Origin: an uncultured bacterium
GTDB lineage: Bacteria > Latescibacterota > MWCZ01 > CAZVGZ01
Assembly: GCA_964627605.1 (NCBI GenBank)
Contig: CAZVGZ010000001.1
Coordinates: 47,325-111,324, forward strand
DNA length: 64,000 bases
Reading direction: 5' to 3'
Of the stretch, positions 1 through 38,641 are shown piece after piece. The translations under genes were made by a program, and so were the position numbers. The notes under the pieces were generated by a model, which saw nothing but the letters and a program-made list of their open reading frames with translations, was not told where the DNA came from and ran no database searches. How positions within the stretch are numbered: position 1 is the stretch's first letter; the number at the start of each line of letters is the position of its first letter.

Positions 1-379
1 GGTCGCTCTTAACCGCAGCCGGTCGATCTCTTCGTTTACACTGGCGTCTTTCTCAATGTAGGTGTCGGTTCTGGGTAGGTACGCCTCAGGCTGGTAGTAG
101 TCGTAGTAGCTGATAAAATACTCAACGGCGTTGTTGGGGAAAAGCTGCTTTAGCTCGCCGTAAAGCTGTGCGGCGAGCGTCTTGTTGTGCGAAATCACCA
201 GCGCTGGTCGATTGATCTTCTCTATCGCCGCCGCGATAGTATACGTCTTACCGCTGCCTGTCACCCCCAACAGCGTCTGCCACCGTTCGTCCAGGTTGAA
301 CCCGGTGACAAGCTCATCAATCGCCATCGGCTGATCGCCCTGCGGCGTGTATTCAGATATCAGTTCGAATTTTGGCATC
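1..379 (-). CDS. uvrB: Excinuclease ABC subunit B, N-terminal part; the gene continues beyond the window start
   Basis: Reverse-complement translation from the ATG at 379 gives [100 protein letters not shown]. This is the canonical UvrB N-terminus with the Walker A motif GVTGSGKT. Confidence 0.85.
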
Positions 380-1065: not shown

Positions 1066-2169
1066 TTAGCCGCCGTATTTTTGACCGAGTTCACGGACCA
1101 GGTCCACGAAGGCGCGGTGGTCGTCAAATGAGGTGTCAGGGGGGGTGGCGTGGTCGATGCCTGGGACATAGCCGCCTGATTCGAGCAGTGCCGGGACTTT
1201 GCGCATAACCTCTTTTTTCATGGCATCACCGCCTTCTGCGACGGCGCGTTTGTCTACGCCGCCTAAGAGCGCGAGTTTGTTGCCAAACCGCTTGCGGGCG
1301 TTTTGCGGCTCCATTCCTGCGGCTATCTCGAACGGGCAGATAGCGTCCACACCCGACCCGACGAACATATCGAGCAGGCTGTCGGCGTTGCCGTCAGTGT
1401 CGAGCCAGATGACAGGTATTCCGCACGACTTGATGTGATCGTTTAGCGGCTCGTAGTAGGGCATCATGAATCTTTTTACGAAGTCAGGGGAGATCAACGG
1501 TCCGGTCTTGTGGGCCATATCCTCCCAGAGCAAAATGAAGTCCAAACCCTCGAAGTTGTCAGTGACTCGCGTAATCAGCCGCGTATAAAAGTCCAGCCAC
1601 CAACGCATTATCTCGTGGATGAGGTCGGGGTCGTCGTAGTAGACGTAGGCCAGACGCTCCTCGCCAAAGCAGTTGCGCGGTGTTCCGTAGGCACCGCACA
1701 CAGTCATCCCCAACGGGTAGTCGCGGTCGTAGTAATCCTCGTGCATCTCCGCCCAATCGGGATACCTGGTCGATACATCAGGATCAAGCTGGTTTTTCCG
1801 CATTGTTTCGAAGTCGGCAGGTGTTTCGATGGGGAACTTGAGCCACTGCGGCATGGACCGCTCAGGATGCGTGGCGCTCTGTCGTCGGACTATCCCGTAG
1901 CGGTCCTGATATACAACGTACTTGTCGTCACGTTCGAGCTCTTTATGCTCAAAGGTAGGGTCCAGAGGCAGCATCGTAAAGCCTGAATTGACAGGCAGAT
2001 AGGCCCATTTCTCCATCTCAAAGTAGTCGTGCGCCAAAACGTCCTCTGACAGACCCTCTTTGCGCCATCTGGTTATGGTCTCGCCCCAGAAACCAAGCGT
2101 TTCCCACCTCAGTGGCCGATCGACGCGCTCAAAGCGCATCTGCCTCAAAAACCTCTCCCGCGTATCCAT
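1066..2169 (-). CDS. Uroporphyrinogen decarboxylase (UroD)/MtaA-CmuA family methyltransferase-like protein, paralog 1
   Basis: 367 aa. The N-terminus MDTRERFLRQMRFERVDRPLRWETLGFW parallels the other three paralogs in the window (MSMTDRERFNACMHFESVDHVPDEEFGYW, MTSRERFLRTLSYRDVDRPPLFDD, MTSRQRLTLAMQGKPTDRVPLHVWG). Length and layout fit the URO-D-like TIM-barrel methylcobamide methyltransferase family. Confidence 0.7.
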   Translation of the reverse strand: MDTRERFLRQMRFERVDRPLRWETLGFWGETITRWRKEGLSEDVLAHDYFEMEKWAYLPVNSGFTMLPLDPTFEHKELERDDKYVVYQDRYGIVRRQSATHPERSMPQWLKFPIETPADFETMRKNQLDPDVSTRYPDWAEMHEDYYDRDYPLGMTVCGAYGTPRNCFGEERLAYVYYDDPDLIHEIMRWWLDFYTRLITRVTDNFEGLDFILLWEDMAHKTGPLISPDFVKRFMMPYYEPLNDHIKSCGIPVIWLDTDGNADSLLDMFVGSGVDAICPFEIAAGMEPQNARKRFGNKLALLGGVDKRAVAEGGDAMKKEVMRKVPALLESGGYVPGIDHATPPDTSFDDHRAFVDLVRELGQKYGG

Positions 2170-2295: not shown

Positions 2296-5121
2296 CTAGG
2301 GCAGCGCTCCAACCGACAACAGCGCTTTTGCTGCGGTTTCATTGAGCGCTAACTCTGGTCGACAATCATCTGATTGAGCGTGTCTGAGCAACTGCGAAAG
2401 CATATATCTCGCCTCTGGCCACTTCTGTTCGAGATTTAGTGCGCAGATGATGAGCGCTCCCTGTCCGACGCGCCGCTCAACAAGATAGCCCAGCGGATGG
2501 CAGATGAGATATGAGTGCATGACGCGGATCACCGGGTCGCCATCGTTAAGCCCCAAAGGCGTCAGGTCCAGCGGTGGCGAGTCAGTTATCATCCTGAAAA
2601 ACTGAAGGTCGGTGTAGCCCTCATGGGGCATGTCGCCAAGCATTGGGTGGTCGGCGATGATAGTGCCGTCGTGGCCGTCTTCGTTGGGCGGGTAGTTCGC
2701 TGGTGGTGTAAAAAAATAGTGGCCCTCTTTCATGCCAAACAGCGGACGATATGGACGCACCAACCCCTCTGACGCCACCAGAACGGCGCGGCCACCATCG
2801 TTGAGGTATTCGAGCAGTTGAGCATCGACGCGCTCAGTGAGCAGCACGTTGCCAGGCTGCGCTTTGGACACACCCGCTTGTTCAATTCCGTCTACCGACT
2901 TCAGCCAGGTGTGTTCGGGAGTGCCATAGATACCTGTGTTGGATGGCAGTTGGATTTCGTGTGGAAAAACCCACAGGTCCCACCGGTTTGTGACGACCCG
3001 GTCGCCGTCGGTAATGCAGGCGATTAACCGCGCTGGCGTTGGTGTCATCACTTGCGGTGCAGTGAATTCCACCTGACCTGCAAGGTACGTTCGGTACGGC
3101 TGGTGTGAGGCTTTTACAGTACCAGTAGAGACCACCTCTTTTCCGACGGATAGCTCCCACCCAATAGCACCAAACGACAGCGGCGGGTGCGAGAAATCTG
3201 ACACATGGAGGTCGCAGCTGACCAAGTCGCCTGGTTCGACCACACGGTCATCGAACCCCAGACTGCACATTATCACCGCGTCGCCGTTAGTCTCAAGCCA
3301 AGATGCGGCGTCGGCGATCTTTCGCTCGTAAAACTCGTCGATCACGCCTTGGGGAGATGGGTTCCCATCCATGGCGTTGAAATGGCATATGCCAGCCAGA
3401 TTCTCATAATCCCTGCGACACGCCTCCATCTTGGCTTTGGACTCCAAAAGTTGCAGATGTTGGCTGTTTTTGGCCCCCTGGGCCAGCGTGTGGCTGATGC
3501 CCTGTTTGGCTGCGGCTTTGATGGCGATCTCGGCTGCGTAGGGCCTCATAGCGCCGGAATATCTCTCTATAAGCGCAACATCTGGGAAAGAGCTCCACCA
3601 CTTATACTCATGTTGGATTAACGGCAGCGCGGTATCGCCGTCGCGGGAGGCTTGGTCGTTTACGAAATCTTGGGGCAGATCCTCGTTTAAGCCGCCGTCA
3701 GTCCAGATAACCAGCGCCGTTGGTTTGATTTTCTTTGTGTCGTTGTAGCACTTCCATGCCGAACGCGGAAAATCGGTATCGGCGCCGTATTCATTACTCA
3801 GGCAATAGAGGTTGGCCGATGGGTGATTTACATCGCGTAGGACGACGTTGTTCCACTGTGTTGTGAGAGCGTCGCGGAATCTGGGTGTTGGCTGCGGCCA
3901 CTGGTATACGTGGTCAGGTGTGTTGCCGCCCCACGCTCCTATCGCTCCCATCTCACTCTGAATCAGCAGACCCACCTCGTCAGCGACGTCGTAGTACTCT
4001 GGGGTCTGCGCGTACGACTGTAGCCTGACATAGTTGTAGCCGTAGTCACGAAGCGTTTTCAGCCTTTTACGAAGCCGATCACGGTCGGTGTCTGGGCTGC
4101 CGGTCTCAGGGCAGGGGATAAACTCTCCGGTGCCCCTCATGTAGTACGGCTCGTCGTTGATGAGAAAATGCTTGGCGTCGGTGGACAGGCTCACGAAGCC
4201 GATCCGCTCTGAGACCGCATCCAGAATCCGCCCGTCCTGCACAATCTCTGCATCAACGCGGTAGAGGTTGGGCGAATCGGGGCTCCATGGCTGTGGCGAC
4301 GGTATCGTGATGCGACACTCGGCCAAATTGCCAACGACAGGGGCCTTCACGCTCTGCTCCTGCCTTCCGTTTACCGGCGTTACTGTCGCTCGCAGAGTCA
4401 GATCGGAGATGGTCTTTGGAGAAAGATCGAACTGGGCGGATACATCCACCGCCTGTCCATTCAGGTCAGGACGACAGCGAAGCTGTTCAATCCGTGCCGA
4501 GCCAGCGGAAACGATCTCAACACCGCGATACAGACCCGACCAGTTGCCCTGCCAACTGTAGGCCATCCCAAAAATCCGATCCGCCTCGTGTACCCTCACT
4601 ACAATGTCATTCTGGGCTTTCAAGTTGACTACGTCGGTGATCTCGAACCCGAATGGCACAAACGGCTGTCCGTGGTTGCCTAACTCCACACCGTTCAGCC
4701 AGACTTGAGCAGATGGATGCGCTCCGCCGAACATCATCCACACCCGCTCTGACTCCCACGCGTCTGGCACCTCGAAACTTGAGGCGTACCACCCCGTGCC
4801 TTTGTAAGTCGCGCGAAAAGTCCTGGCCATCAGTCGGAAATCCCACACCATCTCACTCTCGTCGCTTCCGAACCCCTGGCCCTGCCAACATCCCGGCACC
4901 TCTATCGTGTCTTGAAAAATGTCCGACTGCCCAAACCACCCCTCACCGACACCAACGTCTTCTGGATCCAGTCGAAAGCACCACCTCGGGTCCAAACTCC
5001 GTCGCCTCTCGGCTGCATGTGTCAGCACCGGGTTCACTCGCACCGGGGCCAGGACGTTTTCTGCCGCTTCACCCATCTGTCTACCGCCATTTTCCATTGG
5101 GGATTCGCATATCCGCGCCAT
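2296..5121 (-). CDS. Glycoside hydrolase family 2 protein (beta-galactosidase/beta-mannosidase/beta-glucuronidase-like)
   Basis: 941 aa with GH2 architecture: N-terminal sugar-binding beta-sandwich (WYASSFEVPDAWESERVWMMFGGAHPSAQVWLNGVELG), then a TIM-barrel region with the acid/base motif NEYG (YCLSNEYGAD). The start codon is uncertain; M at ENGGRQ or MGEAAENV are alternatives. Confidence 0.8.
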   Translation of the reverse strand: MARICESPMENGGRQMGEAAENVLAPVRVNPVLTHAAERRRSLDPRWCFRLDPEDVGVGEGWFGQSDIFQDTIEVPGCWQGQGFGSDESEMVWDFRLMARTFRATYKGTGWYASSFEVPDAWESERVWMMFGGAHPSAQVWLNGVELGNHGQPFVPFGFEITDVVNLKAQNDIVVRVHEADRIFGMAYSWQGNWSGLYRGVEIVSAGSARIEQLRCRPDLNGQAVDVSAQFDLSPKTISDLTLRATVTPVNGRQEQSVKAPVVGNLAECRITIPSPQPWSPDSPNLYRVDAEIVQDGRILDAVSERIGFVSLSTDAKHFLINDEPYYMRGTGEFIPCPETGSPDTDRDRLRKRLKTLRDYGYNYVRLQSYAQTPEYYDVADEVGLLIQSEMGAIGAWGGNTPDHVYQWPQPTPRFRDALTTQWNNVVLRDVNHPSANLYCLSNEYGADTDFPRSAWKCYNDTKKIKPTALVIWTDGGLNEDLPQDFVNDQASRDGDTALPLIQHEYKWWSSFPDVALIERYSGAMRPYAAEIAIKAAAKQGISHTLAQGAKNSQHLQLLESKAKMEACRRDYENLAGICHFNAMDGNPSPQGVIDEFYERKIADAASWLETNGDAVIMCSLGFDDRVVEPGDLVSCDLHVSDFSHPPLSFGAIGWELSVGKEVVSTGTVKASHQPYRTYLAGQVEFTAPQVMTPTPARLIACITDGDRVVTNRWDLWVFPHEIQLPSNTGIYGTPEHTWLKSVDGIEQAGVSKAQPGNVLLTERVDAQLLEYLNDGGRAVLVASEGLVRPYRPLFGMKEGHYFFTPPANYPPNEDGHDGTIIADHPMLGDMPHEGYTDLQFFRMITDSPPLDLTPLGLNDGDPVIRVMHSYLICHPLGYLVERRVGQGALIICALNLEQKWPEARYMLSQLLRHAQSDDCRPELALNETAAKALLSVGALP

Positions 5122-5273
5122 CCGATTCCAGCATTTCCAAAGCCAAGTGCGTCCAGGTCAGCCGGGTTGGTCGACGCGTCGACCGCACATGGTCGCTTTG
5201 GACACTGATCTTATCTGTAGGTGCGCCGCAAAAGGTCTTACTCTGGGCAACGATGTCCGCACCCCTGTAGTAT

Positions 5274-6074
5274 GTGTGTCGAATCCAGGGTAGCCAACCC
5301 CTGCGCATCGCTATCCTAAATGAAAGAGTTGAGCCGGTGAAAACACCACTGAAAGTCGAGATTTCGCCCAGCCATCCGCTCCTTATCCTGATGGTGGACC
5401 GAGGTCCGCTAGGAGGCGAAGACGAGGGTGCCAAGATGGTCCGGCTGTACGAGGAGTTGGACGATGACATCAGGCCGTATATCACATTACAGATCAAGGC
5501 GGTACGGTCGAGTGACTTCCAGCGGGACGAGATTCTTCTCTCCTACGCCCAAAAAACCAACCTTCCTATCACTCTCCAGATTCAAGGAGATAACGGCGAC
5601 CGGCAGGATACCATGCCGATTGAGACGGTTCGCCGTTTTATTGATGAGTACCCGTGCATTGTCGGCCTTTAGATCGTCGAGGCGAGCCAACGCACGTTCG
5701 CCGATCAACCTGCTGGTCCTGAATACACAATGGGACGTAATGCTCGATATGCCAGAGATGTCATAAAGCTCGCAGGCGAATACGGTCTGTTTATGAGTTG
5801 GCAACTCATGCGGGACAACTACGCCGCCATCGGTTGTTCTGGAGACAACGAAGCGCTGTTTGACACCATCATCGAATACAGCGACTACGTGATCCCGATG
5901 CACGAGATGAACGTCACGACAATCACGCTGGATCAGAGCCCAGGCGGGTATCAGGACTTCGACCAGGGGGCGGCGAAAAAAATATGTCATCGACCCCCAA
6001 TAATCACGTTGGGCGTCGATTCTTTTTTCCGGGGTGCAATGTGTTGGTGGTGGTCTATGCGGCTGGATGGATAA
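5274..6074 (+). pseudogene. Hypothetical protein whose reading frame is interrupted by a single in-frame TAG at 5670-5672 (called as ORFs 5274-5672 and 5730-6074 in the same frame)
   Basis: Both ORFs are in frame 0 (5274 mod 3 = 5730 mod 3 = 0). Reading runs ...FIDEYPCIVGL TAG IVEASQRTFADQPAGPEYTMGRNARYARDVIKLAGEYGLF... The 57 nt between the TAG and the second ATG contain no further stop. There is no convincing SD before the 5730 ATG. I do not recognise the family; the gene is divergent from the GH2 gene. Confidence 0.4.
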
Positions 6075-7554
6075 CGGAACGCAAGGCGGGGTAGATCAGT
6101 CTGTATTTCCCAAACTGCACGTCGTAGAAGCGCGCGCGCTCAGCATCAGGGTCGATCGGATCGCTGTGTACGACCCCACATGACGCCGCCTCTTCGATTG
6201 ACGACCACACCCCCACCCCAACCCCAGCGATGAGCGCGGCCCCGAGCCCAGCCTGCTCTGCAACGTTGGTGGTGACGACTTGACACCCAAGAATGTCAGC
6301 TTGCAGTTGACGCCATAACGGTGAGCGGGCACCTCCTCCCGAGGCAACAACCTGATTCACCTCCGCTCCTAACCCCCGCATAATCTCAAGCCCCTCACGA
6401 AGCCCGTATGTCACACCCTCCATGATCGCCCGCGTCATGTGTGCCCTACTGTGACGCAGCGTCAGCCCCACAAAACCACCACGGGCATGGGGGTCCATGT
6501 GCGGCGTTCGTTCACCAGCCAGGTAGGGGGCGAAAAACAGTCCCTCTGATCCTGCGGCGACAGCGCTAGCCTCGTCTGACAGATCGCTATATGATAGGTC
6601 GTGGCTGGCTTGAAGAACCTGCTCGCGAAACCATTTGAGCGATAGGCCTGCGCTGAGGGTGGCGGCCATCAGATACCACCGATCCGGCGCGGTATGGCAA
6701 AAGCTGTGCGTCCGCAGTTGAGAGTCAACCAAAGGCCAGTCGAGCGACAGGAAAATCTGCCCTCCGGTGCCGATGGTGGATTGAGCTGAACCGTGTTGGG
6801 TGACGCCGTTTCCCACCGCAGCTATAGGTTGGTCGGCACCACCGTACATGACCGGGATACCGCTTCGTAGGCCAACGGATTTTGCGGAGGCATCGGTTAG
6901 CTCACCTGCGATATCAGATGATTCGGCGACAGCTGGCAACCACGACTGAGGCAGATCCAGAGCCCCGAGCATATCCTTCGACCATCGCCGCCGTGCTACG
7001 TCGAACAGTAGCGTGCTCGAAGCATCTGACGCCTCGGTCCCGATCTCTCCTGTGAGTCGATATCTGACGTAGTCTTTGGGCAAAAGTACCGTGTAAATGC
7101 GGTCGGTTATTTCAGGTCTGTGTCGGACAAGCCACAGGAGTGTTGCAGCCTGAAAGCCTGTAGCGATGGGGTTGCTTGTCCAGCGAGCGAGGTTCTCCAG
7201 GCCTACGTTGTCACAGATATACTCAACCTCAGCGGCGCTTCGCTGGTCAGCCCAGATTGTGGCTGGAAGCAGCGGGTCGCCATTGGAATCGAGACAGACG
7301 GTGCCGTGCATCTGCCCTGAGAAACCTATACCTGCTATATCCTGGTCGGAGATGCCGCTCTTGGAGACGACCTTATTGATGGTATCACACGCTGCTTGCA
7401 CCCACGCATCCGGGTCCTGCTCAGCCCAGTCGTCCATCGGTGTGTCAATTCCGTAGCCGACATATGCGGTGTCCGTGACGACGCCGTCCTCGTCCACCAG
7501 CACGGTTTTTGTTCCCGATGTGCCCACATCAATGCCGAGGAGGTATCGGGGCAT
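6055..7554 (-). CDS. xylB: FGGY-family carbohydrate kinase (xylulokinase-like)
   Basis: 499 aa starting MPRYLLGIDVGTSGTKTVLVDEDG, the FGGY N-terminal phosphate-1 motif. Carries ...GFSGQMHGTV... and a C-terminal FGGY_C domain (VASGGGARSPLWRQLQADILGCQV). Confidence 0.8.
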   Translation of the reverse strand: MPRYLLGIDVGTSGTKTVLVDEDGVVTDTAYVGYGIDTPMDDWAEQDPDAWVQAACDTINKVVSKSGISDQDIAGIGFSGQMHGTVCLDSNGDPLLPATIWADQRSAAEVEYICDNVGLENLARWTSNPIATGFQAATLLWLVRHRPEITDRIYTVLLPKDYVRYRLTGEIGTEASDASSTLLFDVARRRWSKDMLGALDLPQSWLPAVAESSDIAGELTDASAKSVGLRSGIPVMYGGADQPIAAVGNGVTQHGSAQSTIGTGGQIFLSLDWPLVDSQLRTHSFCHTAPDRWYLMAATLSAGLSLKWFREQVLQASHDLSYSDLSDEASAVAAGSEGLFFAPYLAGERTPHMDPHARGGFVGLTLRHSRAHMTRAIMEGVTYGLREGLEIMRGLGAEVNQVVASGGGARSPLWRQLQADILGCQVVTTNVAEQAGLGAALIAGVGVGVWSSIEEAASCGVVHSDPIDPDAERARFYDVQFGKYRLIYPALRSVIHPAA

Positions 7555-8250: not shown

Positions 8251-9786
8251 TTATTCGCGCGTCCACCAGGTCATGCGGTGAAGCTGCTCTTCGCTAGGCG
8301 GTGGGAAAAAGTAGCTTGATAGGTATCCCACGCCAAAAAGAAGCACGTTTGCCACAACGCCGATAAAGAAGCGCTGGATCGGCAGCGCCATCCATTCAGG
8401 CAACGCCCCCAAAGCGCTCAGACCCGCCCAGAGCGTAAAGGTGAATGTGAGCGCAACTCCGATTAACGCGCCCTGCCAGTTGGTCCTCGTAGATACGAAG
8501 CCCAACAGGAAAAACCCGCCTAGCCCGCCGGTGAGTACCGCCCCGACGAACATCCCCAGATCAAGAATGGTGGTTTCGCCAACCAGAGAGAGTAGATAGG
8601 CGGTCACCACCATTAGCACACCCAAACCGCCTGTGATATAACGAGCGGCTTTGAGGTAGTATTCGTCGCTGCGGTCTAAGGAGATATACCGTCTAAAAAA
8701 GTCTTCAGTGATGACAGTAGCAGAACCATTCATGCTGGAGTCTATGCTGGACATCGCCGCAGCCAGAACAGCCGAAATGACCACGCCGCCAAGGAACGGC
8801 GGCATCCGTGTCAGAATGAAATGCGGATAGACCGCGTCAGCTTTAAGACCTGATACCACCGAATCTGGATGCACCTGGAAATAGACCCACAGGACGGTGC
8901 CCACGAGCATGAACATCCCCCAGATGGGGATGCAACCAAAGCCCACTGTCAGCACCGATGTGAGAGCGCCTTTGTCGTCTTTGGCGGCGGCGTAACGTTG
9001 TATTTTCGTCTGATCGGTGGAGAACTCCTGTACATTGCCCACCAGACCCATGAGGGCAAATGTCCAGAACGTCAGTTTCACCAGGCTGAAATCAAAATCG
9101 ACACTCAGGTTGAATTTGCCAGCGTCCCATGCCTGCCCCACGACCGCCGACACGCCTCCTTCTACTCCCCAAAACACTATCACTAACGTGATGACTCCGC
9201 CGAACATCAGCACAATCGTCTGAAGCACATCGGTCCAGATGACCGCCTCCAAACCCCCTACAGCGGTGTAGAGGACGATTAGCGCTCCCACCACGATCAT
9301 CACGGTCGTCATCCCCCATCCGGTCATCCCGGTGACAGCGATGGAGATCAGGAATAGGATGATACCCATCCGGTATATTGAGCCGAGTATAAACAGCGCG
9401 CTGGCGTAAGATCGCCCCCACGCTCCGAAGCGGCGGTTGAAATACTCATATGCGCTGCGAAATAGCGTCTTACGGTAGAACACGACGAAATAGCGCAGCG
9501 CGATCATCGCTGTCACCGGCAGCATCAATCCTGGAACGAGGCGACTCCAGTCACCAGCGTATGCCGATCCTGGGTATGCCAAAAAGGTGATTGAGCTGAT
9601 GGCGGTGCCCAGCATGGAGAGTCCCACCGCCCAACCCGGGATCGCCCGCCCACCGACGAAAAAGCCCTCTGTACCCTCGGCTTTGATCCGTTTGGAGCTC
9701 CACATAGCCAAAGCCACCATTGAGGCGGCGTAGAGGAAGACTGCGATTCCATCCCAGAACCTTAGGGTCGTGACGGCCTCATTCAT
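8251..9786 (-). CDS. Sodium:solute symporter (SSS family) transporter
   Basis: 511 aa with about 13 TM helices. Has the SSS family signature region (FFVGGRAIPGWAVGLSMLGTAISSITFLAYPGSAY). Confidence 0.85.
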   Translation of the reverse strand: MNEAVTTLRFWDGIAVFLYAASMVALAMWSSKRIKAEGTEGFFVGGRAIPGWAVGLSMLGTAISSITFLAYPGSAYAGDWSRLVPGLMLPVTAMIALRYFVVFYRKTLFRSAYEYFNRRFGAWGRSYASALFILGSIYRMGIILFLISIAVTGMTGWGMTTVMIVVGALIVLYTAVGGLEAVIWTDVLQTIVLMFGGVITLVIVFWGVEGGVSAVVGQAWDAGKFNLSVDFDFSLVKLTFWTFALMGLVGNVQEFSTDQTKIQRYAAAKDDKGALTSVLTVGFGCIPIWGMFMLVGTVLWVYFQVHPDSVVSGLKADAVYPHFILTRMPPFLGGVVISAVLAAAMSSIDSSMNGSATVITEDFFRRYISLDRSDEYYLKAARYITGGLGVLMVVTAYLLSLVGETTILDLGMFVGAVLTGGLGGFFLLGFVSTRTNWQGALIGVALTFTFTLWAGLSALGALPEWMALPIQRFFIGVVANVLLFGVGYLSSYFFPPPSEEQLHRMTWWTRE

Positions 9787-10214
9787 CGCTGTGTGTCCAA
9801 TCAGTTGCGGTGCGTCGGTGTACCGAGGGTTGTTCGTCTAAATGAATCTGACGTGATTGGTAAAGGATAAACGAAACGGGCGCGTCGGTCATGGATAGGC
9901 CGGAGTGTTTTTAACAGATAGCAGGATCAACATCAGGGCGATGCTGACTATGAATCAGATTGACTCTCGTCGCTGGAAAGCGCGATCCAAAGCAGCAAAC
10001 GCTGAAATTCCCGCTGAGAAAATGGTTGCATATCACTGCGGACTTTTTGGTCATCCACCACTGACCGGGGGTGGTTCAACGATCAATCACCGAAATTCAG
10101 CCTGACCGTACCCCATCTCAAGGTACTCACATCACCTCAAAAACCTCCACGCCATACCTCTATCTGTTGTGAACGGGCCAATGTCCTGCGATGCCGATCA
10201 TTGATGGGAGTTTA

Positions 10215-10613
10215 CTACTCCATTCCGTGTTTAGCTCGCCACTTCTTGGCCAGCTCTTCGCGTTTGGGATGGCCTTTCCAGTGGGCAGGCTCTGGCCACG
10301 GGTCAGGTATCTTCATCATCACGTCACCTCCATCCATCCACACCTTGAAGGTAGGTACCGGGTTTCTACCCATCATTGATAGGCCGTCGGTGATCCTCCA
10401 GACGTACTCATGCCTGGGGCATTCGACCAGACAGCCTTCTAATACGGTTCCCAGCGCCAGCGTGCTGCCCTGGTGAGGGCAGTGGTCGTCCAACGCGTAG
10501 AAGCTGCCTTCCACCCTAAACACCGCTACCCTGTGGCCGCAGACTTCCACAGGTGCGGCGTGTCCATCCTCCCACTCATCGACCGATGCTATTTTGATTG
10601 TATTAGCGGGCAT
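10215..10613 (-). CDS. Rieske [2Fe-2S] domain protein (NirD-like small Rieske ferredoxin)
   Basis: 132 aa. CPH at DDHCPHQG, then CPRH 17 residues later (CxH-X17-CxxH). Lies 18 nt downstream of the TIM-barrel gene at 10632-11576. Confidence 0.8.
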   Translation of the reverse strand: MPANTIKIASVDEWEDGHAAPVEVCGHRVAVFRVEGSFYALDDHCPHQGSTLALGTVLEGCLVECPRHEYVWRITDGLSMMGRNPVPTFKVWMDGGDVMMKIPDPWPEPAHWKGHPKREELAKKWRAKHGME

Positions 10614-10631
10614 TGCTCTTCTCCGTTCTTG

Positions 10632-11576
10632 TCATTCGGTCGTCAGCTCGCGCATAAATTCCACGCTGCTCTCAACGTGACGGGCTGCGGTTTCCAGAAC
10701 ATCTTGAGTCACCTCCTGCGATGGCAACCGGATGCCTGTGTCTTCTGGCGTCGTGATGATCTCGTACAGCGGCATATCTGGGACGCATTGCGGAGGCTTT
10801 GGCATTTTTGTCGCATATCCGTAGCACACCTGAATCATCAGACGCTCAAGATGGGGTGCAGCCGCCAATACCTCAACAATCTCAGTCAACGGTATGCGCC
10901 CAGACCCGAGCGCAACACCGGTGGACCAGACCTCTCCATCGTTGTCCCTCACCAGCACATGATCTTTGATATGAGTCGTCCTGGCGTGGGGTGCCAACAA
11001 CCGCGCCTCTTCAATTGGATCCTGGTAGAACGGTATTGAGTTGCCGCTGTCAAATACTGCACCGACCGCTGGCGAGTCCACCAGTTGGAGCAGCTCCACC
11101 AGTTCGCTGGCGGTCAGGTCCTCATGGTTTTCCACGGCCAATGAAACACCGGCGGCTTCATACTGCTCAGCCACCAAAGAGATCCGCGCGGCCTGTTGTT
11201 TGAGGGTAGCACCGATGTCATCCCCGCGTTCGTCGATAGTCGTCCTGACGACATCTGCATCGAGGTTGCGCGCCATCTCCAACACCAGGAGCATTTTTGA
11301 TGGATCGGTACCGCCTGAGGCTATCTCCAACGCGATCCCCAGTTCCGCTGCCCTCGATCCCACGCTCCGGAAATGTTCGGTGGTGCTACCGCTCAGTGCG
11401 CGGTGGTTCGGGCCGTTGATATTGATCTGCAAAGCGGTGAGATCAAGCGCTGTGACGCGGTCTAGCAGCGTGTCTATCGCCTGGTTGTCGTATCGCCAAT
11501 GGAGGTAGTAGCTAAAACTGTCCAGACCCAGCGAGAACCTTTGACCCAAGCTTGAAACCGATTGTGCGCTCATCAA
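10632..11576 (-). CDS. Sugar phosphate isomerase/epimerase (xylose isomerase-like TIM barrel)
   Basis: 314 aa. Has the xylose-isomerase-like TIM motifs (LDSFSYY..., ...LAVENHEDL..., ...HIKDH...). Confidence 0.7.
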   Translation of the reverse strand: MMSAQSVSSLGQRFSLGLDSFSYYLHWRYDNQAIDTLLDRVTALDLTALQININGPNHRALSGSTTEHFRSVGSRAAELGIALEIASGGTDPSKMLLVLEMARNLDADVVRTTIDERGDDIGATLKQQAARISLVAEQYEAAGVSLAVENHEDLTASELVELLQLVDSPAVGAVFDSGNSIPFYQDPIEEARLLAPHARTTHIKDHVLVRDNDGEVWSTGVALGSGRIPLTEIVEVLAAAPHLERLMIQVCYGYATKMPKPPQCVPDMPLYEIITTPEDTGIRLPSQEVTQDVLETAARHVESSVEFMRELTTE

Positions 11577-11621: not shown

Positions 11622-12000
11622 CTATTCGAGTTCACTCGACACGATCGGCGCTTCTTCGGCGCTTTGATCTGGGACATCCGGCCACCATTTATTCAGCGGC
11701 GGCGGAGTGTCTGGCTCGACCGACTCTCCTGGTCGGGGCACGGAAACAGAAACGCCCCCCCTCTTCGCAGCGACCAACAATCGCTCGACGGGTTCAGTCC
11801 AGGAGTGCAGAGCGAGATCAAATGTCCCCCAATGGACAGGTATATAAAGACCGCCTCCCAACATCAGATTGGCACGAACAGCCTGCTCTGGCCCCAGGTG
11901 CATATCAGCCCAGAGCGAGTCGTAGGCCCCTGCGTCCATTAGGGTCAGATCGAACGGCCCCAATCTTTCGCCGATCTCCGCAAAATAGGGGACATACCTG
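11622..12000 (-). pseudogene. C-terminal remnant (about 125 aa) of a NAPE-PLD-like MBL-fold metallo-hydrolase; no N-terminal half present
   Basis: Minus-strand translation gives ...[73 protein letters not shown]... This parallels the C-terminal half of the full-length gene at 58065-59156 ([49 protein letters not shown]...IHWGTFRL). A TAA stop lies immediately upstream, and the HxHxDH N-terminal part is absent. Confidence 0.6.
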
Positions 12001-12316
12001 TGTCACCGCTGTAAAACACACTCTTCCTCGTACTCAATACCTGCCGCGCAGTTTTGGCAACAACTTAAAGCCGCCACAACACGGCATTCCTGGACATGGG
12101 CTGTGATGACCGTTCAAAATGGTGTTTGAGATGATTCAACCGATGAGGTACGAGCGGTGGATTGAGACGACTTCGGTCTCAGCGTCACCTGACCTGTTGG
12201 CAACGTCGCAAGCGGGCAACCGGGTGTCCGTCAGAATCAGTCACGATCGGCAATTATCGTCACCTCACCGCCAGGACAGAAACCCACATAGAGGCCGAGG
12301 GGCGACGAAATTCGCG

Positions 12317-14338: not shown

Positions 14339-14904
14339 TCGGCCCGCTCCTCGGCGTCTTCCCTGCGCCGACCCTGATTTTGGGCTTCCGATTCTTCCAA
14401 AGAGTTGGTAATCTCGGATAGCCGCTCATTCGTAAACCGCAAACGTGTCACTATGAGCTGGGACAGCGGAATTAGCACCTTGACGCCTAGAGCGGTGTTG
14501 CGCTGCATCAATTCGAGCAGGTCTGGCCTAGAGATGGCCACAATGTTGGTTGGTCGTGAAGCGACAGCCGAAGCGGAGCGGGGCGATTCGTCCAGCAGCC
14601 CAAGTTCTCCGAAAAACTCGCCCTCGAGGATTGAAGCCAACACACGGTCATCGCCGCCTTTTTCATCGCGCTGCACGATGTTCACCTTGCCCTCCAGCAC
14701 GATATACATCGCCACACCGGGGTTATCCTGGTGGAAGATCGCTTCGCCGGACTGGTAAGTGCGAAAATGTACGATCCTCTCAACGTCATTTCGCTCCGAG
14801 CGGGAGAGGCCTTCGAATAGATGGATAGCCCCAAGTGTCTCGTCCAAGGATTCTTCTGATGGGCGGAGTCGCTGGATCACGCTTGTCCAGATACCCGAAA
14901 TCAT
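14335..14904 (-). CDS. Cyclic nucleotide-binding domain protein with no DNA-binding domain
   Basis: 189 aa. cNMP-binding fold motifs (FFGELGLL..., ...RSASAVA...) followed by a charged C-terminal helix. No HTH. Confidence 0.75.
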   Translation of the reverse strand: MISGIWTSVIQRLRPSEESLDETLGAIHLFEGLSRSERNDVERIVHFRTYQSGEAIFHQDNPGVAMYIVLEGKVNIVQRDEKGGDDRVLASILEGEFFGELGLLDESPRSASAVASRPTNIVAISRPDLLELMQRNTALGVKVLIPLSQLIVTRLRFTNERLSEITNSLEESEAQNQGRRREDAEERAE

Positions 14905-15701
14905 CGTGCTCCTCCTTGCCCTTTCCGGCCTGGGGCGAATGTAATTATGATTCTACCTGTCTGGTCAGCCGTGTTGGCACCAGACGGAAGTGGATCGAAG
15001 TGGCTCGCTCGCAAGAACGCCCTTGCGAACTCCTCCAAATCTGGGTCCTCTTTTCTAAGCGGTATGGCATCCACAACAGTTCCGTCGGCTGAGACTATGA
15101 GCGAAAACTGGAGTCTGGTGCGCGGCGGCAGGTCGATGAGGGTGCGCCCGGTTGCTGCGAAGAATTCGCGGCCCTGGAGCTGTCCTTCAATCTTGATTAC
15201 CGGCTCGACATCACCGCCAATCGCTTCGGATTCCATCGAACCTGCCGTACCGATGCCCTGATCAATGTCAATACTAGCCCCGGTATAGGCGATTTTCCTG
15301 TCCCCAAACAGGCCTCGGGGGTTGGTTTTGCGGGGGCTGGTAACCATCCGCCGGGGTTCGGTCACTTTGTCGTCTGCACTTGATACGCGGTCAGGAAGCA
15401 CGAGGCGCTCTTGATCGGTAACCCGCACCGACGGCACTTCGACCTCTGGGAGTTTACGATCCGGCGCTGCTTCCTGTCGATCGTCACTGGCGTCGGTGCC
15501 GCTAAAGGATCTGTCCAAAATCCTCGAAAGCCGCTCCGGTGATATCCGTCCTAGATTCAGTTCTACAAACTCCGTCGGCTTCTGTCTGTGGTTGACAGTA
15601 ACAGCCGCCGATAAGGCCGCCATCCCAACGAGCAGACCCACCGTAACAGCGCCGCTGCCATACTCTCTAATACGTTTCTTTGACAGACTTATCGAGATCA
15701 T
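14901..15701 (-). CDS. tonB: TonB-family energy transducer
   Basis: The preferred start is the ATG at 15701 (MISISLSKKRIREYGSGAVTVGLLVGMAALSAAV, an N-terminal TM anchor). A proline/charged linker follows, then a TonB_C-like C-terminal domain (VDAIPLRKEDPDLEEFARAFLRASHFDPLP). Overlaps the cNMP gene start by 4 nt. Confidence 0.6.
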   Translation of the reverse strand: MISISLSKKRIREYGSGAVTVGLLVGMAALSAAVTVNHRQKPTEFVELNLGRISPERLSRILDRSFSGTDASDDRQEAAPDRKLPEVEVPSVRVTDQERLVLPDRVSSADDKVTEPRRMVTSPRKTNPRGLFGDRKIAYTGASIDIDQGIGTAGSMESEAIGGDVEPVIKIEGQLQGREFFAATGRTLIDLPPRTRLQFSLIVSADGTVVDAIPLRKEDPDLEEFARAFLRASHFDPLPSGANTADQTGRIIITFAPGRKGQGGAR

Positions 15702-15799
15702 TTTTGGCTTTTTTTCTGGTGCGCCGCCCTGTGTCCAACAGCCCACCATAACATCCGTCACCCTAGAAAAAGATGTTCCAACCCACCCCTGTAATCCGA

Positions 15800-16207
15800 C
15801 TATCCGGTACTCCGCACGGATTCGGTGGCTATGAGAAATCTCTCCCACCCAGCGCTTCTGGCGAGGTCCATCACATCAACTACCGCCTCGAGCGGAAGAC
15901 GGCGATCGGCTCTCAAAACAATGATCTGATTTGGGTCTACGAGCCTCTGCCTAAGCTCCTGAATCAGCATCGGGCGGGTGAAGGACTCGTCATTGAGATA
16001 TATTGTTTGGTCGAACGCAACCGACAAGACGATGGATCTCTCCGAACTGATATCCCCGGCCACCGATTCTGGGAGTCGGACTTTGATGCCCAACTGAAGG
16101 AAAAAAGTGGACGACAGCAGAAAAAACACCAGCAGAAGGAACACGATGTCCGTCAGGGAGATCGCTGCGAACCCGGTAAGCAGCGGCTGGTTGGTGCGTA
16201 GCTTCAC
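15800..16207 (-). CDS. exbD: Biopolymer transport protein ExbD/TolR
   Basis: GTG start at 16207 overlaps the exbB stop (GTGA). The product VKLRTNQPLLTGFAAISLTDIVFLLLVFFLL... matches the ExbD N-terminal TM segment and periplasmic domain. About 136 aa. Confidence 0.75.
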   Translation of the reverse strand: MKLRTNQPLLTGFAAISLTDIVFLLLVFFLLSSTFFLQLGIKVRLPESVAGDISSERSIVLSVAFDQTIYLNDESFTRPMLIQELRQRLVDPNQIIVLRADRRLPLEAVVDVMDLARSAGWERFLIATESVRSTG

Positions 16208-16852: not shown

Positions 16853-18568
16853 CTACCACTCCCTGCCGACGCCGAGAGCCAGTGTTAGGCCTGGTTCGAC
16901 AAACCCTTCCCACCGCTCGTAACGAGTATGGAAGATATTATACAACCAGAGCCGACCATAGAGGCCATGCCGCATGGGATGCTGGGCACCGATATCCATT
17001 ACCGCGTAGCTGCCCATCTTCACTCGTTTGCCCTGGGAATCTGCGTGGGGTCGGCGACCAATCCACGTCAGACGAGGCATCAGCCTTAGGTTCTCCCACA
17101 AGTCCATACTTGAGGAGACTTCGTGGTGGAAGTCAGGCACGTATGAAACTCCAGACCGTTCTTGGTAGGCTGACCAGAAGACCCTCAGCTTGCTTGCTAT
17201 GGACACCTTTGGTCCGACTCGATGTTGAATCGTAAGATATCCGGTGCGGATCGACACGTTGTCTTCATCATAGGTCAACTCGAAATCGGGCGTCGCGGCC
17301 CTGTCAGAGACCCCAGCCGTCGATCTATCCAACGCCGGAACAGCCCAGGGCTTGTCCCACACAGGGTAGTTCCTGATGAGGTTGAAGCGGAAGCCTGCGG
17401 TGATATGCCGTCCCTCGCCGCGCTGTGCGTCCACCCTGATGTCCAAGTCCGCCCTGTGGATAATCGGTTTGAGTGGTGTGTCGATGAAAAGAAACGGGTT
17501 GTCCCGGTAGGCTTCCCACAGGCCATATCGCTCAACACGCCCGCCTCCCCCGAATCGCGCCGTGAGCTTTAGCCACGACGTAACTCTCGCCCACGCATAT
17601 GCTTGAGCATACGGTTTTCTTATAGAGTCAGCGTCTGACGTAGCATCGAACGGGTTGACGCTGAAAAGTGTTACCCCCAACCCTCCGCCGTACCTTTCCT
17701 CCGGCCGGGTGAGCGCTTCGGCTCCAACGCTGGCTATCGTGGTGACACCTCCAGAGCTCTGGCCTCTCGATAGCGATGTGCGGTCGTAGCTCGCCTTGCC
17801 ACGGACGTAGAACCGCCGCCCGGCACGTTCTCCGTAGCCCTCAATAAGAACGCCGTTTTCTGTTCCACCACCGACCGGCTCCAGAGAGTCTTTGATGTTC
17901 CTACGGTCTATCTCAATCGAACCGTGCAGCTCGGTATCATCGACAGCACCGTCGCCTGCTATTTTGACAGCGATCCGGTTGAACGATCTCTCTCTATCAT
18001 CGCTCAGACTCCACACCCCGTTCATCCCCTCAATCAGCTTGAAACCGACAGCGCCAGCGGTGCGGTAGGGAAGCCGCCTGCCTGCGTCGATTGAAGCCAC
18101 GACCTTTCGGTGGGACGCTCCATCGCGATGCCCCGGGCCACCGCGTAGGCCAAATGATCCTGCAAGCTGCCACCCAGACCTCTCAGCGCGGCCACCGGCT
18201 TCAAGGGCCACGTTGCCTTGGTGGTTGATTAGCCCAGCGGCGTCAGCGGCGAAATCGCGCCCTGCTCGAACGATCCTGGGCAAAGCTATTTTGCCCCCAA
18301 CCTGCGGTAGCACCTCTAGACCTCTCATAGATGGTCGGTGGAACTCGCGGGACTGCGGCAGGGCGTAGCCGTAGGCCGATTCCAGCTTGTTTCCTTCGGT
18401 CTGAAGCTCCACCGCGCCCTGGCCGGTGATCACCAGCGAATCGGGCATGTCGAGGCGCATTCGCTGATCGGTGGGGTCGCTCTGTTGGGCCTGGATGTGT
18501 GGCGCATATATCAGAACCTGCCACACGAGAACCAGCGTCCATCTACCGCATGTTTTCAAGTCGCTCAC
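16853..18568 (-). CDS. Outer-membrane beta-barrel protein (short TonB-dependent-receptor-like)
   Basis: 571 aa. Signal peptide (WTLVLVWQVLIYAPHIQAQQ), a TonB-box-like DSLVITG near the N-terminus, Gly/aromatic-rich amphipathic beta-strands and a C-terminal aromatic residue (…LALGVGREW). At 571 aa it is shorter than typical TonB-dependent receptors. Confidence 0.55.
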   Translation of the reverse strand: MSDLKTCGRWTLVLVWQVLIYAPHIQAQQSDPTDQRMRLDMPDSLVITGQGAVELQTEGNKLESAYGYALPQSREFHRPSMRGLEVLPQVGGKIALPRIVRAGRDFAADAAGLINHQGNVALEAGGRAERSGWQLAGSFGLRGGPGHRDGASHRKVVASIDAGRRLPYRTAGAVGFKLIEGMNGVWSLSDDRERSFNRIAVKIAGDGAVDDTELHGSIEIDRRNIKDSLEPVGGGTENGVLIEGYGERAGRRFYVRGKASYDRTSLSRGQSSGGVTTIASVGAEALTRPEERYGGGLGVTLFSVNPFDATSDADSIRKPYAQAYAWARVTSWLKLTARFGGGGRVERYGLWEAYRDNPFLFIDTPLKPIIHRADLDIRVDAQRGEGRHITAGFRFNLIRNYPVWDKPWAVPALDRSTAGVSDRAATPDFELTYDEDNVSIRTGYLTIQHRVGPKVSIASKLRVFWSAYQERSGVSYVPDFHHEVSSSMDLWENLRLMPRLTWIGRRPHADSQGKRVKMGSYAVMDIGAQHPMRHGLYGRLWLYNIFHTRYERWEGFVEPGLTLALGVGREW

Positions 18569-23178: not shown

Positions 23179-26100
23179 TCAGGCGGCGGGTGCATCAACA
23201 TACCTATCTCTTGTCTCCGGGGTCAGGGCGCGCCAGACGAGGAACTGACGCCTGATCTCATTGAGAAGCGCCCGGCATCCGCGTCGCCACGAATCTCTTC
23301 CGCCGCTGTGCCTTAGCATCAGAATGTCCACAGCCAACATCCCCTCTTCGTCTTCGCGTGTACGCAGTGTCAGCTTCTGGCTAATTCCCAAATCAAACGG
23401 GGCTAGCCATACATCCACATTCAGAACATGCGGCATTTCCGTGTCTGGATCGGTCGACAGGGCGGCTGATTGCGTCGAAAAAGTCTCACCGATGGAACGG
23501 TCCTCGTACATCTCGAAGTACTCGCGCAGGAATGGCATTACACCGTCGGCATCGCGCCTGCTCAACATGAATGGCAACGGAGTGCGCAGGAGATCGCCCT
23601 CTGGCTCAGGCGGGGTCCACGAACGTTCAATCCCAGGCACGCACATCTGCGATGCGAGTTTTGCTGGCCAGATCGAAGATGACATGACCACGGCCATAAC
23701 CAGTACAATTGTCCCCACCGCCGATACTGATGAGTAGTTGAGTGTCAATCCCGGGAGGATGCCTGTCGCTGTGATGATTGTCGCGGCCACCTGCCCCAGC
23801 AGGTAGCCCAGTATGGCACCAATAGTCGAATAGACCGCCGCCTCAGCAACAAAAAGTCCGGCTACATGGGCAGGCGCCAACCCGATTGCGTTCAACACTC
23901 CTGTCTGTGTAGTTCGTTCGTATACTGCACCGAGCATCGTGTTGGTGACTATCAGCACCACTAGCACGATGGGAATAACGACTTCCCGCTCTCCCCGTAC
24001 GCTGGTCAACCCAACCGAGCGCATCACATATCGCGCTCCGTCTATCCCGGCGTAGATATTGATCCCTAAAGCTGGCATCCACTCATCAGCGGCCTGCGTA
24101 GTCGCTTGGCTGTCTGGCAACCTGACAGCCACCGACCTGACTGTTCCCCCCAACCTCAGCGCCCACACCGCAGGAACCACAACCAGTTCATCGCCCTTGA
24201 GGTGAACATAGATTGATGCCGACCCTGAACGCGACATCCCCACTGACGTTCTCTGCTCCACGGTCTGCTGCGCATCCGGTTCGAGAGGGGTGATCGGTTC
24301 TCCGTTCAGGTCCTGGACATCTGTGAATGCGGCAGAATCGATGATTCCCACCACGCGGAAATGACCGCCCAAAGTTGTGACCTGCGCCCTACCGACGTCT
24401 TGAGGCCCAATCTCAAGGCGGTCTGCCAACAGCTCGGACAGAATGCAACTCTGTTCATCGGGTTCATTGAACCAGCGTCCAGTGATGAGTGCTCGAGGGG
24501 GTACTGTAAGTTGGCTTTCGGTTGGCGACAGGCCCAACAAGCCTTGAATTACTGCCGACTTCGTTGGGCCGTCAGTGCGGCGCAAGACCATCGTGCTTCG
24601 TGCCCCCGCCGATGCTCGTGCCGGGCGCCATACCCTTTTGGCGGTGGTCGCACCTGGGGTGTAGCGAAACCGGTCCTCTATCCGCCGGGCTACTGGCGAC
24701 TCCAAGATGGCCCAATTGGGCAGACGAACGAGGAGGCCGTTGTAGGGGGCGTCCCTCCCGATCTCAATCTTGTTGAAACGAAGCGTCGAGCGGATAGATG
24801 TGAAGGAGAGAACAACGAATGTCAGGATCACTATTGTTCCGGCAGTCAGCCCTGTCCTCATCGGGCGGCGGCGCATCTGTCCGATCCCAAGCCTTGTGGC
24901 GGTGAAAAACACTCCTAATCGGCTCACGTCTGCGGTATGGTTCGTGACCTGTTCGCTGAGCGACTGGTGGAGTCGATGATTGAATTTTGAGACAGCGATG
25001 CCTGTCACAGCAAGGCTGAGCGCGAGGATGATGAACGAGAGGAGAAGAACCGACGGTGAGATAGCCAACGAGAATGCCGGGTGAGCCCACCTCAGGACCA
25101 GGAATGCCAGAGTAAACACGAAGGTCGCACCCAATATGCGCCCTCTTGTCCCTCTAGCGTCGATCAGAAGTCTCTCCACCATGTATGAAAACGGCAGCAA
25201 CATCGCCAGAAAGAACACCACACCGTGGACCACATCGTCGGTTGTTCCCCTCACATCGGTGTAGGCCCTCGACGTGTATCCCCACGCAGCGCGGGATGCT
25301 ACGATAAACCTCCCATACTCCCGGTTCTCAAGCGTCTCTCTGGCTTGTTCCAGAAGCTCTCCTGACCCGTAGTGCATCGATTGGAGCCGCGGATTGTCTA
25401 TCCCGTGGGACGCTAACAGGTCCAGCCGAATGCCGTTGAGCCTGTGGGTATCCGATCCAATCTGATAAGCCGATCTAGTTATCCTGCCGTTTCTGTCGGT
25501 GTCGAAACCGACCCCTGTTGGGTGTGCGTTGTCCGTATTTAGCGCTACAAGACGGCGGCCAAGGCCCAACTCTCCAAGGGTCATCACGAGTTTGAGGCGA
25601 ACGCCAGGTTGACCGAACGCAACTGCGATCGGCTCTACATCTGAGCCGAGATAGGTCTTGCGGCCACCGAATCCGAATATGCCTGCCTCCAGCGGTGTCA
25701 GTGGCAGGCTCGCACCAAACTTGACCGGTTCAGCCTCCCGGCCTGCCTCGACGACCATCATGTTGTCTAGGGTCAGCAGATACCGCGGGTCAACGATGTC
25801 GTACAGAGTTGCTGGCTGCGCTCGGAAGGCGACCACGGTCACTTTCATGTGACGACGATCCATCCTGACGCCTATCGGGTTACGCAGATCACCGTCGATC
25901 CCTAGGTCCGGGACATACTCTATAGCACCGGTTGTCGGATTGATCCCGTAGGCTTCAAAAACGAACGGCTTGTCGCTTCTGTAGATCCGGTCGTACTCCA
26001 TGCCAGGCACAACGAAACGGCCATCGCTGTCAGTGACGGTGATAAACTCCCCACGCACCGCAGACACGGATTTCATTTTCATCCGAGGGCGGACGATCGC

Positions 26101-33765: not shown

Positions 33766-34126
33766 GCTTTGTTCCAGCCAGATAGGGTGGGGAGTGCTGT
33801 TGAGACAACGCAGTCGAACGTAGTAATTTATGTCGCCCCTGGTGTCGGGTCAATCAAAGTGCAGCCACGGCAAACGTGACAGACTCCGATGTCGCTCACC
33901 GTATCACTAGTAGAAGGCGAATTGATCGGGCTCGCAACATCTCCATCGACTACAGAGCTGGCGCGACTACGAAACAGCGGTTGGCCAACTGTGATCTCCG
34001 AACCCGCGTCTTGCAGCCCTGGCAGTCACTGGCTGCGATGGGACATAGGGCGTACGGAGCACATCACGCACCTATATTTTCTTGGTTGCCCACATACTTA
34101 CTCGACCAGAAAAAGGAAACTCATTG

Positions 34127-35794: not shown

Positions 35795-35930
35795 GGCACC
35801 CCTACCGATCAACGTCAGGGACGGATATACTTCGTCCTTCTTTACAGCACTGGCCTCACTCTCTAGTGGATTTTAGGCCATATCACTGTTATGGGGCATC
35901 ACGCCCCGTTCTTCATCTGGAGCGAAAAAC

Positions 35931-37073
35931 ATGTCAATGACCGACAGGGAGCGATTCAACGCCTGTATGCATTTTGAATCTGTGGATCACGTCCCTGACG
36001 AAGAGTTCGGCTACTGGGAAGAGGTGTTCCCGATCTGGCACGAGCAGGGCTTGCCAGAGTGGGTAACCGACAACGGCAAAGCCGATCAGTATTTCGGGTT
36101 CGCCACGAAAGGCGGGCTGCCGGGGAATATCGGCATCATGCCGGGATACAAGACGCGGGTGATCGAAGAGGATGATCGACGCATCTTGCTCGAAGACGGT
36201 GACGGAGCACTCAAAGAGGTAGCCAAAGACGGACACTCGACCATCCCGCGCTATCTCAGATTTCCCATCGAGACCAAGGACGACTGGAAGCGGTTTCGGG
36301 ACGAGCGGTTTGATTCTTCAAATCCCGATCGTCGCGACATCGATTGGGATTCTGTCATCAAACAGCATGAGGGGCACGACTATCCTCTGGGCCTCAACTG
36401 CGGAAGCCTGTTCGGATGGATACGCAACTGGATGGGTTTTGAAAATGTGAGCATCGCCTGCGTAGAAGACCCGGACTGGATAGAGGAGATGATGGACGCC
36501 ATCACCGACATGGTGCTGACGATGCTAGACGACACGATCTCCCACGCAGGTCACCTTGGCCTCGATTACGCCAGTTTTTGGGAGGATATGGCCTTCAACC
36601 ACGGCCCGATCATCTCCCCGGCGATGTTTGAGAGGTGGCTTACACCTCGCTACAAGAAGATTACGGACAGACTAAGGGAAGCTGGTGTCGATGTTTGCAT
36701 CGTTGACTGCGACGGGAACATCAATGTCGTAGTCGAACACTGGCTGGCTGGCGGGGTCAATGTCATGTTTCCGCTGGAAATCAGAGGTGGAACCGATCCT
36801 GTGACCATTCGTGAGAAATACGGCCACGATGTTCTCTTGGCTGGTGGAGTGGACAAGACTCAGCTCATTGAAGGCAAAGAGGCGATCCGTAAAGAGCTAA
36901 ACCGCATTGAGAGCACCATTGCCGACGGTGGATTCATCCCCCATGTCGATCACAGATGCCCACCGGACGTGACATACGACGACTACCTCTACTACGTAAA
37001 AACCAAGCGCGAGATGTTGGGCATTCCAGAGCCAGTCTCTTACGAAGATCGGAAAGCAGCGGGGTTGGTTTGA
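35931..37073 (+). CDS. UroD/MtaA-CmuA family methyltransferase-like protein, paralog 2
   Basis: 380 aa. The N-terminus MSMTDRERFNACMHFESVDHVPDEEFGYW is paralogous to the 1066-2169, 37165-38139 and 62050-63162 genes. Confidence 0.7.
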   Translation: MSMTDRERFNACMHFESVDHVPDEEFGYWEEVFPIWHEQGLPEWVTDNGKADQYFGFATKGGLPGNIGIMPGYKTRVIEEDDRRILLEDGDGALKEVAKDGHSTIPRYLRFPIETKDDWKRFRDERFDSSNPDRRDIDWDSVIKQHEGHDYPLGLNCGSLFGWIRNWMGFENVSIACVEDPDWIEEMMDAITDMVLTMLDDTISHAGHLGLDYASFWEDMAFNHGPIISPAMFERWLTPRYKKITDRLREAGVDVCIVDCDGNINVVVEHWLAGGVNVMFPLEIRGGTDPVTIREKYGHDVLLAGGVDKTQLIEGKEAIRKELNRIESTIADGGFIPHVDHRCPPDVTYDDYLYYVKTKREMLGIPEPVSYEDRKAAGLV

Positions 37074-37164
37074 GAGACAGTCGCTACTTGCCGAAACTGG
37101 GTTCCCTCGGCTGGAACAGTGGAGCCCAGCCAGGCTTTCCGCACAGTTTGACAGGTGAGATATC

Positions 37165-38139: not shown

Positions 38140-38148
38140 TGAGGCGTA

Positions 38149-38562: not shown

Positions 38563-38621
38563 GCACAGAAGGCGTCTAAGGTGTTGGCGTACTGCTGAGG
38601 GTGGGCGTACGCTTGACGTAT

Positions 38622-38641
38622 GGGTATTTGTTATTCGAAAG
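38622..38641. promoter_or_regulatory. AT-rich imperfect palindrome TTGTTA-ttcgaaag-TAACAA upstream of the corrinoid protein gene
   Basis: 6-bp inverted arms flanking a TTCGAA core, in an otherwise GC-rich spacer about 90 bp upstream of the 38729 ATG. Confidence 0.35.

Follow-up and report, generated by a model that had tools for sequence, protein, structure and literature searches.

In the pyrrolysine-containing methylamine methyltransferase genes (mtmB, mtbB, and mttB), homology continues across an in-frame TAG codon. The locus described here, from an uncultured member of the Latescibacterota, likewise carries an in-frame TAG with continuous homology, and the window, by which we mean the whole 64-kb stretch of DNA analyzed, also holds components of corrinoid-dependent methyltransferase systems. 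However, its protein family is unrelated to those methyltransferases, the TAG is not conserved in homologs, the window lacks pyl machinery, and TAG often serves there as a true stop. With bacterial pseudogenes formed by nonsense mutation and deletion the locus shares several features: its stop replaces a conserved sense codon and differs from the ancestral codon by a single transition, most of the coding length is gone, the remnant abuts another remnant, and other genes of the genome are disrupted. The one oddity here is the in-frame join that the deletion made between the two remnants. We consider it very probable that the locus is a recently inactivated, truncated pseudogene that has suffered both a nonsense mutation and a 3' truncation and is fused in frame to a frameshifted second remnant. 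It is a pseudogene remnant of an already known and ordinary kind.

Two described enzyme families are relevant to the parts of this remnant. The first is glycoside hydrolase family GH98 (PF08306; for example, Sp4GH98 from S. pneumoniae, PDB 2wmf), to whose middle domain, the catalytic barrel, the remnant and its full-length homologs are weakly similar. The locus also has a carbohydrate-use setting, with a GH2 gene adjoining the remnant and a xylulokinase gene adjoining it both here and in relatives. Compared with GH98, the family of about 750 aa is uncharacterized and differs in its C-terminal part, and the copy in the window appears to be a dead fragment. The second is the formaldehyde dehydrogenase/dismutase family (TIGR02819; PDB 1kol, 4jlw, and 2dph), whose last ~30 residues, ITLDxAPxGYxxFDxGxxKKFVIDP, are recognizable at 5913-6000. 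In contrast to these enzymes, the gene is represented here by no more than its C-terminal ~8%, in frameshifted form, which leaves a remnant and not a gene.

The ORFs at 5274-5672 and 5730-6074 lie in the same frame on the forward strand with a single TAG (5670-5672) between them, across which the translation reads ...EYPCIVGL*IVEASQRTF.... No further stop occurs in the 57 nt behind the TAG, and position 5730 is without an independent start signal. The 267-codon frame contains only 2 stops, the terminal one included, whereas mononucleotide shuffles of it contained 11.6 ± 3.2 (2 or fewer in 0 of 2000); the remaining two forward frames over the same stretch contain 10 and 12. Because of the difference from the shuffles, the open frame is considered to be derived from coding sequence and not from chance. 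The preliminary description had reported an in-frame TAG dividing one reading frame, and the sequence, the translation, and the shuffles agree with it. The open frame of 266 codons given there is real, but it is not one gene, as the GH98-like homology stops at 5912. The start that it placed at 5274 is less likely than the GTG at 5337, which corresponds to residue 1 in alignments with the homologs and was chosen by the gene callers (111-aa product). We regard this GTG as the most likely biological start, and the TAG at 5670-5672 is then codon 112 of the remnant, where it replaces a conserved Gln (CAG). An antisense ORF at 5487-5990 (167 aa) was rejected as spurious, since Pfam gave no match for it and gene calling had passed it over.

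The upstream part of the frame (5337-5912, forward strand) was assigned by tblastn and alignments as a GH98-like remnant comprising codons 1-192 of about 750, with its likely start at GTG 5337. A word-indexed protein search returned two homologs, P0001 and P0002, which read I(I/V)GLQIVEASQRTF over the TAG position and whose similarity to the window stops exactly at ...VIPxHEMN. The scanned genome and metagenome contigs contained 30 related loci, nearly all of which match query residues 1-192/195 only; the exception (L006) has a match listed to residue 240 with 53% identity, which resembles a weak extension seen with P0002. The intact family members are 735-785 aa in length (L001-L003 and most representatives in the exhaustive search), and in 13 metagenome loci 735-755 codons follow the point where the match starts. 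Homologs therefore do not span the 266 aa of the interrupted frame as such: their similarity covers its residues 1-192/195, and the proteins themselves continue to 735-785 aa. When the 752-aa homolog P0003 was compared with the whole window by tblastn, only its residues 1-200 were found, at 5337-5915, with no other piece anywhere, and thus no more than the first quarter of the gene survives in the window.

The enzyme family of these proteins should be treated with caution. PF08306 (Glyco_hydro_98M) matched the remnant weakly, near the N terminus, with 16.8 bits, and the full-length P0003 with 20.9 bits, both under the gathering threshold of 23, although precomputed tables assign PF08306 to P0001 and P0002. 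In a PDB sequence search with a full-length homolog, the best GH98 match had an E value of only 0.28, and the NCBIfam search with such a homolog returned no family. For these last two reasons the enzyme family stays tentative, and the proteins are described here as distant relatives of GH98 only. In other Latescibacterota, intact GH98-like genes of ~750-780 aa are located directly 3' of a xylulokinase gene (L002 and L003 8457-14628, L022, L024, and L025), and in L002/L003 they occur as two tandem paralogs. This neighborhood of the intact members fits a role of the family in carbohydrate use, and we suggest, on the basis of sequence comparison, that the ~750-780-aa proteins form an uncharacterized putative glycoside hydrolase family. 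Two GH98-like copies, L025 2713-3525 and L027 2903-3781 (the locus of P0001), end early, after 270 and 292 codons, and the tail of P0001 appears to be out of frame; these early ends may have arisen by frameshift or by faulty assembly, in populations unrelated to the present one.

At the TAG position, the homologs read through with GLQI(V)EASQRTF. Among 27 homologous loci, the aligned codon encodes Gln in 23 and Glu (GAG/GAA) in 4, and it is TAG in none. The Gln codon is CAG in at least 20 of the 23 loci and CAA in one, with two for which no codon was printed. The closest relative of the remnant (L019), which shares 73% amino acid identity but no synteny with it, carries CAG. A single C-to-T transition, CAG to TAG, at the conserved Gln codon 112 would account for the stop. 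A nonsense mutation and pseudogene had been among the options of the preliminary description, and this option is the one that the Gln (CAG) codon and the 735-785-aa length of the homologs bear out; alignment of the TAG with homologs, which had been suggested there as a check, shows a position conserved as Gln or Glu and never as TAG in the 27 loci. What had been missed is the truncation and the chimera with the tail of a second gene.

The second gene begins where the first breaks off. The GH98-like homology stops at ...VIPMHEMN, with the N encoded at 5910-5912, and the alignment with 2dph begins at MN(I/V), which places a deletion or recombination junction between the two remnants at 5907-5915 (ATGAACGTC) on the forward strand. 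The residues MN at the junction are common to both protein families and may reflect microhomology. After HEMN the frame reads VTTITLDQSPGGYQDFDQGAAKK. Its residues 209-239 matched NCBIfam TIGR02819 (fdhA_non_GSH) at profile positions 361-391 of 397, with an E value of 2.8e-5 and a score of 22.9 bits, which falls below the curated cutoff of 636.95 bits. A run of seven A at 5976-5982 causes a +1 frameshift relative to the fdhA frame: with seven A the frame reads GAAKKICHRPP..., whereas with six it reads GAAKKYVIDPQ*, like the KKFVIDP C terminus of the solved enzymes, and one A less lets the frame continue as YVIDPQ* to a TAA stop at 6001-6003. The run was the same in all assemblies compared. The frameshift-corrected peptide MNVTTITLDQSPGGYQDFDQGAAKKYVIDP matches PDB 2dph at 362-391 (E value of 1.4e-6) and also 4jlw and 1kol. 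From these matches, which span only ~30 residues, we identify 5913-6003 on the forward strand as the predicted frameshifted 3' end of an fdhA-type gene, that is, a 3'-terminal remnant of ~30 codons of a glutathione-independent formaldehyde dehydrogenase/dismutase gene. Past this tail, up to 6074, the frame merely reads on into the 3' end of xylB.

The following course of events is proposed. A C-to-T transition in the first 192 codons of a GH98-like gene of ~750 residues would have turned Gln codon 112 from CAG into TAG, and a deletion or illegitimate recombination would have taken away the other ~560 codons together with all sequence that preceded the last ~30 codons of fdhA. The join would have fallen in frame by chance and created the illusion of one 266-codon frame, and a 1-nt insertion in the A7 run would have shifted the frame of the fdhA tail. 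The order of these steps and the size of the deletion are part of this proposal; we infer the deletion from the homology boundaries and have not reconstructed it, because no close genome with the intact arrangement was found. Nothing functional would be made from such a locus, or at most a 111-aa N-terminal fragment without most of the catalytic barrel. The stop aside, just one of the 76 columns with at least 90% conservation differs from the family consensus in the remnant, compared with 0-9 in intact homologs. Accumulated degradation is thus not seen in the remnant, and the inactivation is therefore considered to be recent relative to the divergence of the family. The good preservation fits a recent inactivation, with which residual selection on the 111-aa fragment would also be compatible.

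The two remnants lie between two larger genes. Upstream is a GH2 gene of 941 aa (2296-5121, reverse strand; Pfam), which is divergent from the remnant and separated from it by an intergenic region at 5122-5336 (ORF list and Pfam) in which no sigma-70-type promoter match was found. Downstream is the convergent xylB gene for xylulokinase (6055-7554, reverse strand), which matched TIGR01312 at 519 bits, above the cutoff. Between the fdhA tail and xylB there is a terminator-like hairpin at 5989-6020, whose stem has one mismatch, followed by a T-run at 6021-6030; the element (5989-6030) can be read on both strands. Folding of 5983-6030 gave -16 kcal/mol on the forward strand (z of -4.86, with 0 of 200 shuffles as stable) and -21.8 kcal/mol on the reverse strand (z of -2.55), where a U-run also follows the hairpin. 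The hairpin is prominent only when 5983-6030 is folded, and the wider segment 5965-6040 gave a different, nonsignificant structure; a consensus terminator scan over 5000-6200 listed nothing. The hairpin and T-run would probably have been kept as a terminator also of the convergent xylulokinase gene, and if the predicted hairpin still acts in this way, this would plausibly explain the survival of the fdhA scrap. The intact ancestral order (GH2, GH98-like gene, fdhA, and xylB) was not found in the 30 related loci, and neither was a closely related genome with both an intact GH98-like gene and an intact fdhA; the only synteny in these loci is that of xylB beside GH98-like genes, in the other orientation, with 44% identity and without fdhA.

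It could be argued that the locus instead consists of a pair of real small genes, for products of 111-132 aa and 88-114 aa, or of a retained functional N-terminal fragment. Annotation pipelines indeed call both parts as hypothetical proteins (MDP6125386.1 and MDP6125385.1), and the sequence of the fragment is well conserved. However, the database proteins of these lengths (~111/132 aa and ~88/93/114 aa; P0013, P0058, and the cluster members) are the same locus, with at least 90% identity, and every other relative is a single protein of 735-785 aa. The separate families of about 130 and 115 aa that would speak for two real genes were thus not seen in the databases, where proteins of such lengths come only from this locus. 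Half of the second "gene" is GH98-like interior and the rest is the fdhA tail and out-of-frame read-on, and it would have to begin at 5730 with no independent start signal. We therefore regard this explanation as very unlikely. Equally improbable in our view is that the 111-aa N-terminal fragment, or an amber-suppressed product of 190-250 aa, is still expressed and has been kept for a new function; if it were true, the product might be, for example, a noncatalytic binding or regulatory fragment beside the GH2 enzyme, with a suppressor or near-cognate tRNA inserting Gln at the TAG with low efficiency.

Even less probable than two small genes or a retained fragment is that the amber codon is read as pyrrolysine, or is otherwise subject to programmed read-through or suppression, to give a continuous protein of 246-266 aa. 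The options of pyrrolysine and programmed read-through had been raised in the preliminary description, and they draw on the 57 nt of open frame beyond the TAG, on the homology that runs on across it, and on the genes of corrinoid-methyltransferase type in the window (URO-D/MtaA-like, B12-binding protein, and FTHFS). This methyltransferase content does not include a gene of the MttB, MtbB, or MtmB type: none of these, nor PylS, PylB, PylC, or PylD, was found with Pfam among 40 ORFs of the window, ARAGORN found 0 tRNAs in the 64 kb, and Rfam gave 0 matches over the same length. The interrupted frame itself matched only the weak GH98M and the fdhA tail in Pfam and NCBIfam, which agrees with the earlier remark that the protein is unlike MttB, MtbB, and MtmB. 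With Gln or Glu in 27 of 27 aligned loci, read-through has no counterpart in the homologs, and its product would keep only 192 of ~750 residues and end in a 30-codon tail that is unrelated and frameshifted. In addition, TAG is the stop of 14 of the 42 large ORFs in the window, full-length conserved enzymes among them, including FTHFS, which matches its profile at 2-556 of 556, and XylB, which is above its NCBIfam cutoff. No report of pyrrolysine use in Latescibacteria was found in the literature, where the papers naming both do not connect them. Pyrrolysine and programmed read-through are therefore not supported, in view of a TAG that is absent from the homologs and common as a genuine stop. 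Reassignment of TAG as a sense codon was also considered and is contradicted by the conserved FTHFS and XylB that end in it.

The window carries a corrinoid-dependent methyl-transfer set at 34082-42492 (forward strand) and 1066-2169 (reverse strand), without a gene of the MttB, MtbB, or MtmB type. It comprises FTHFS (34082-35794), two URO-D/MtaA-like genes (35931-37073 and 37165-38139), a B12-binding corrinoid protein (38669-39367), and a B12-binding radical SAM protein (40717-42492), all on the forward strand, and an MtaA/CmuA-like gene (1066-2169) on the reverse strand. The substrate-specific methyltransferase of this set is not obvious among the genes of the window.

The locus is reproducible across assemblies. 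An XylB protein identical to that of the window is encoded on eight contigs, which come from different samples and assemblers. The DNA at 5122-6054 (933 nt) is 100% identical in five assemblies (L009-L013, with the match in L010 covering 5150-6054), and L017 and L018, two additional contigs from JGI, share the TAG, which makes seven or more assemblies in total. SNPs elsewhere mark these as separate assemblies of a polymorphic population and not copies of one assembly. The cluster members, whose names (MDP6125384-87) refer to Candidatus Latescibacterota, represent two protein haplotypes (R22 and P22), both ending ...CIVGL at the TAG. A sequencing or assembly error behind the TAG and/or the junction, the former having been an option of the preliminary description, is thus the least probable explanation and practically excluded: metagenome assemblies can hold errors and chimeras, and P0001/L027 and L025 from other samples appear to be frameshifted or truncated, but the 933 nt are identical across different samples and pipelines, the TAG recurs in the two JGI contigs, the neighboring SNPs indicate independent assemblies, and two haplotypes both end at the TAG.

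Other decayed genes were observed in the same organism. On L009, uvrB is split into ORFs of 325 aa and 318 aa at 9588-11553; position x of this contig corresponds to window position 9966-x, so that the 5' end of uvrB is at window 1-378 (reverse strand) and the lesion is ~600 nt to the left of the window, where one contig spans the site. The first frame corresponds to residues 4-322 of PDB 2fdc and the second to residues 335-656, which means a predicted deletion of ~12 codons and a frameshift immediately ahead of the DESH motif. At window 11622-12050 (reverse strand) there is the C-terminal remnant of a gene for an MBL-fold hydrolase (113-aa ORF with a Lactamase_B_2 match); it has a piece just upstream (..VFYSGDTG..) in another frame and no visible N-terminal HxHxDH region, and it is probably a frameshifted, truncated pseudogene. 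A 179-aa alpha/beta-hydrolase of the esterase type (BD-FAE/Abhydrolase_3) at window 51511-52050 (forward strand) has profile matches that skip from ~81 of 215 to the C-terminal region, and the segment with the GxSxG nucleophile is seemingly absent; it has possibly undergone an in-frame internal deletion. The pattern of a decayed uvrB, MBL-fold gene, and esterase fits ordinary gene decay and not recoding. Several large ORFs of the window were without a match: one of 1500 aa at 23179-27681 (reverse strand) in NCBIfam, one of 662 aa at 49265-51253 (forward strand) in both Pfam and NCBIfam, and two on the reverse strand, of 571 aa (16853-18568) and 315 aa (14901-15848), in Pfam.

The in-frame joint of two gene remnants at a deletion can mimic a long interrupted ORF, and for the Latescibacterota the result is a negative one: the amber codon found in frame here does not speak for pyrrolysine, read-through, or a change of the genetic code. 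The proper annotation of the locus is therefore a pseudogene, in place of the two hypothetical proteins listed in public records. The cluster of decayed genes that includes uvrB may have a bearing on gene loss in this uncultured lineage, which is a separate and modest question.
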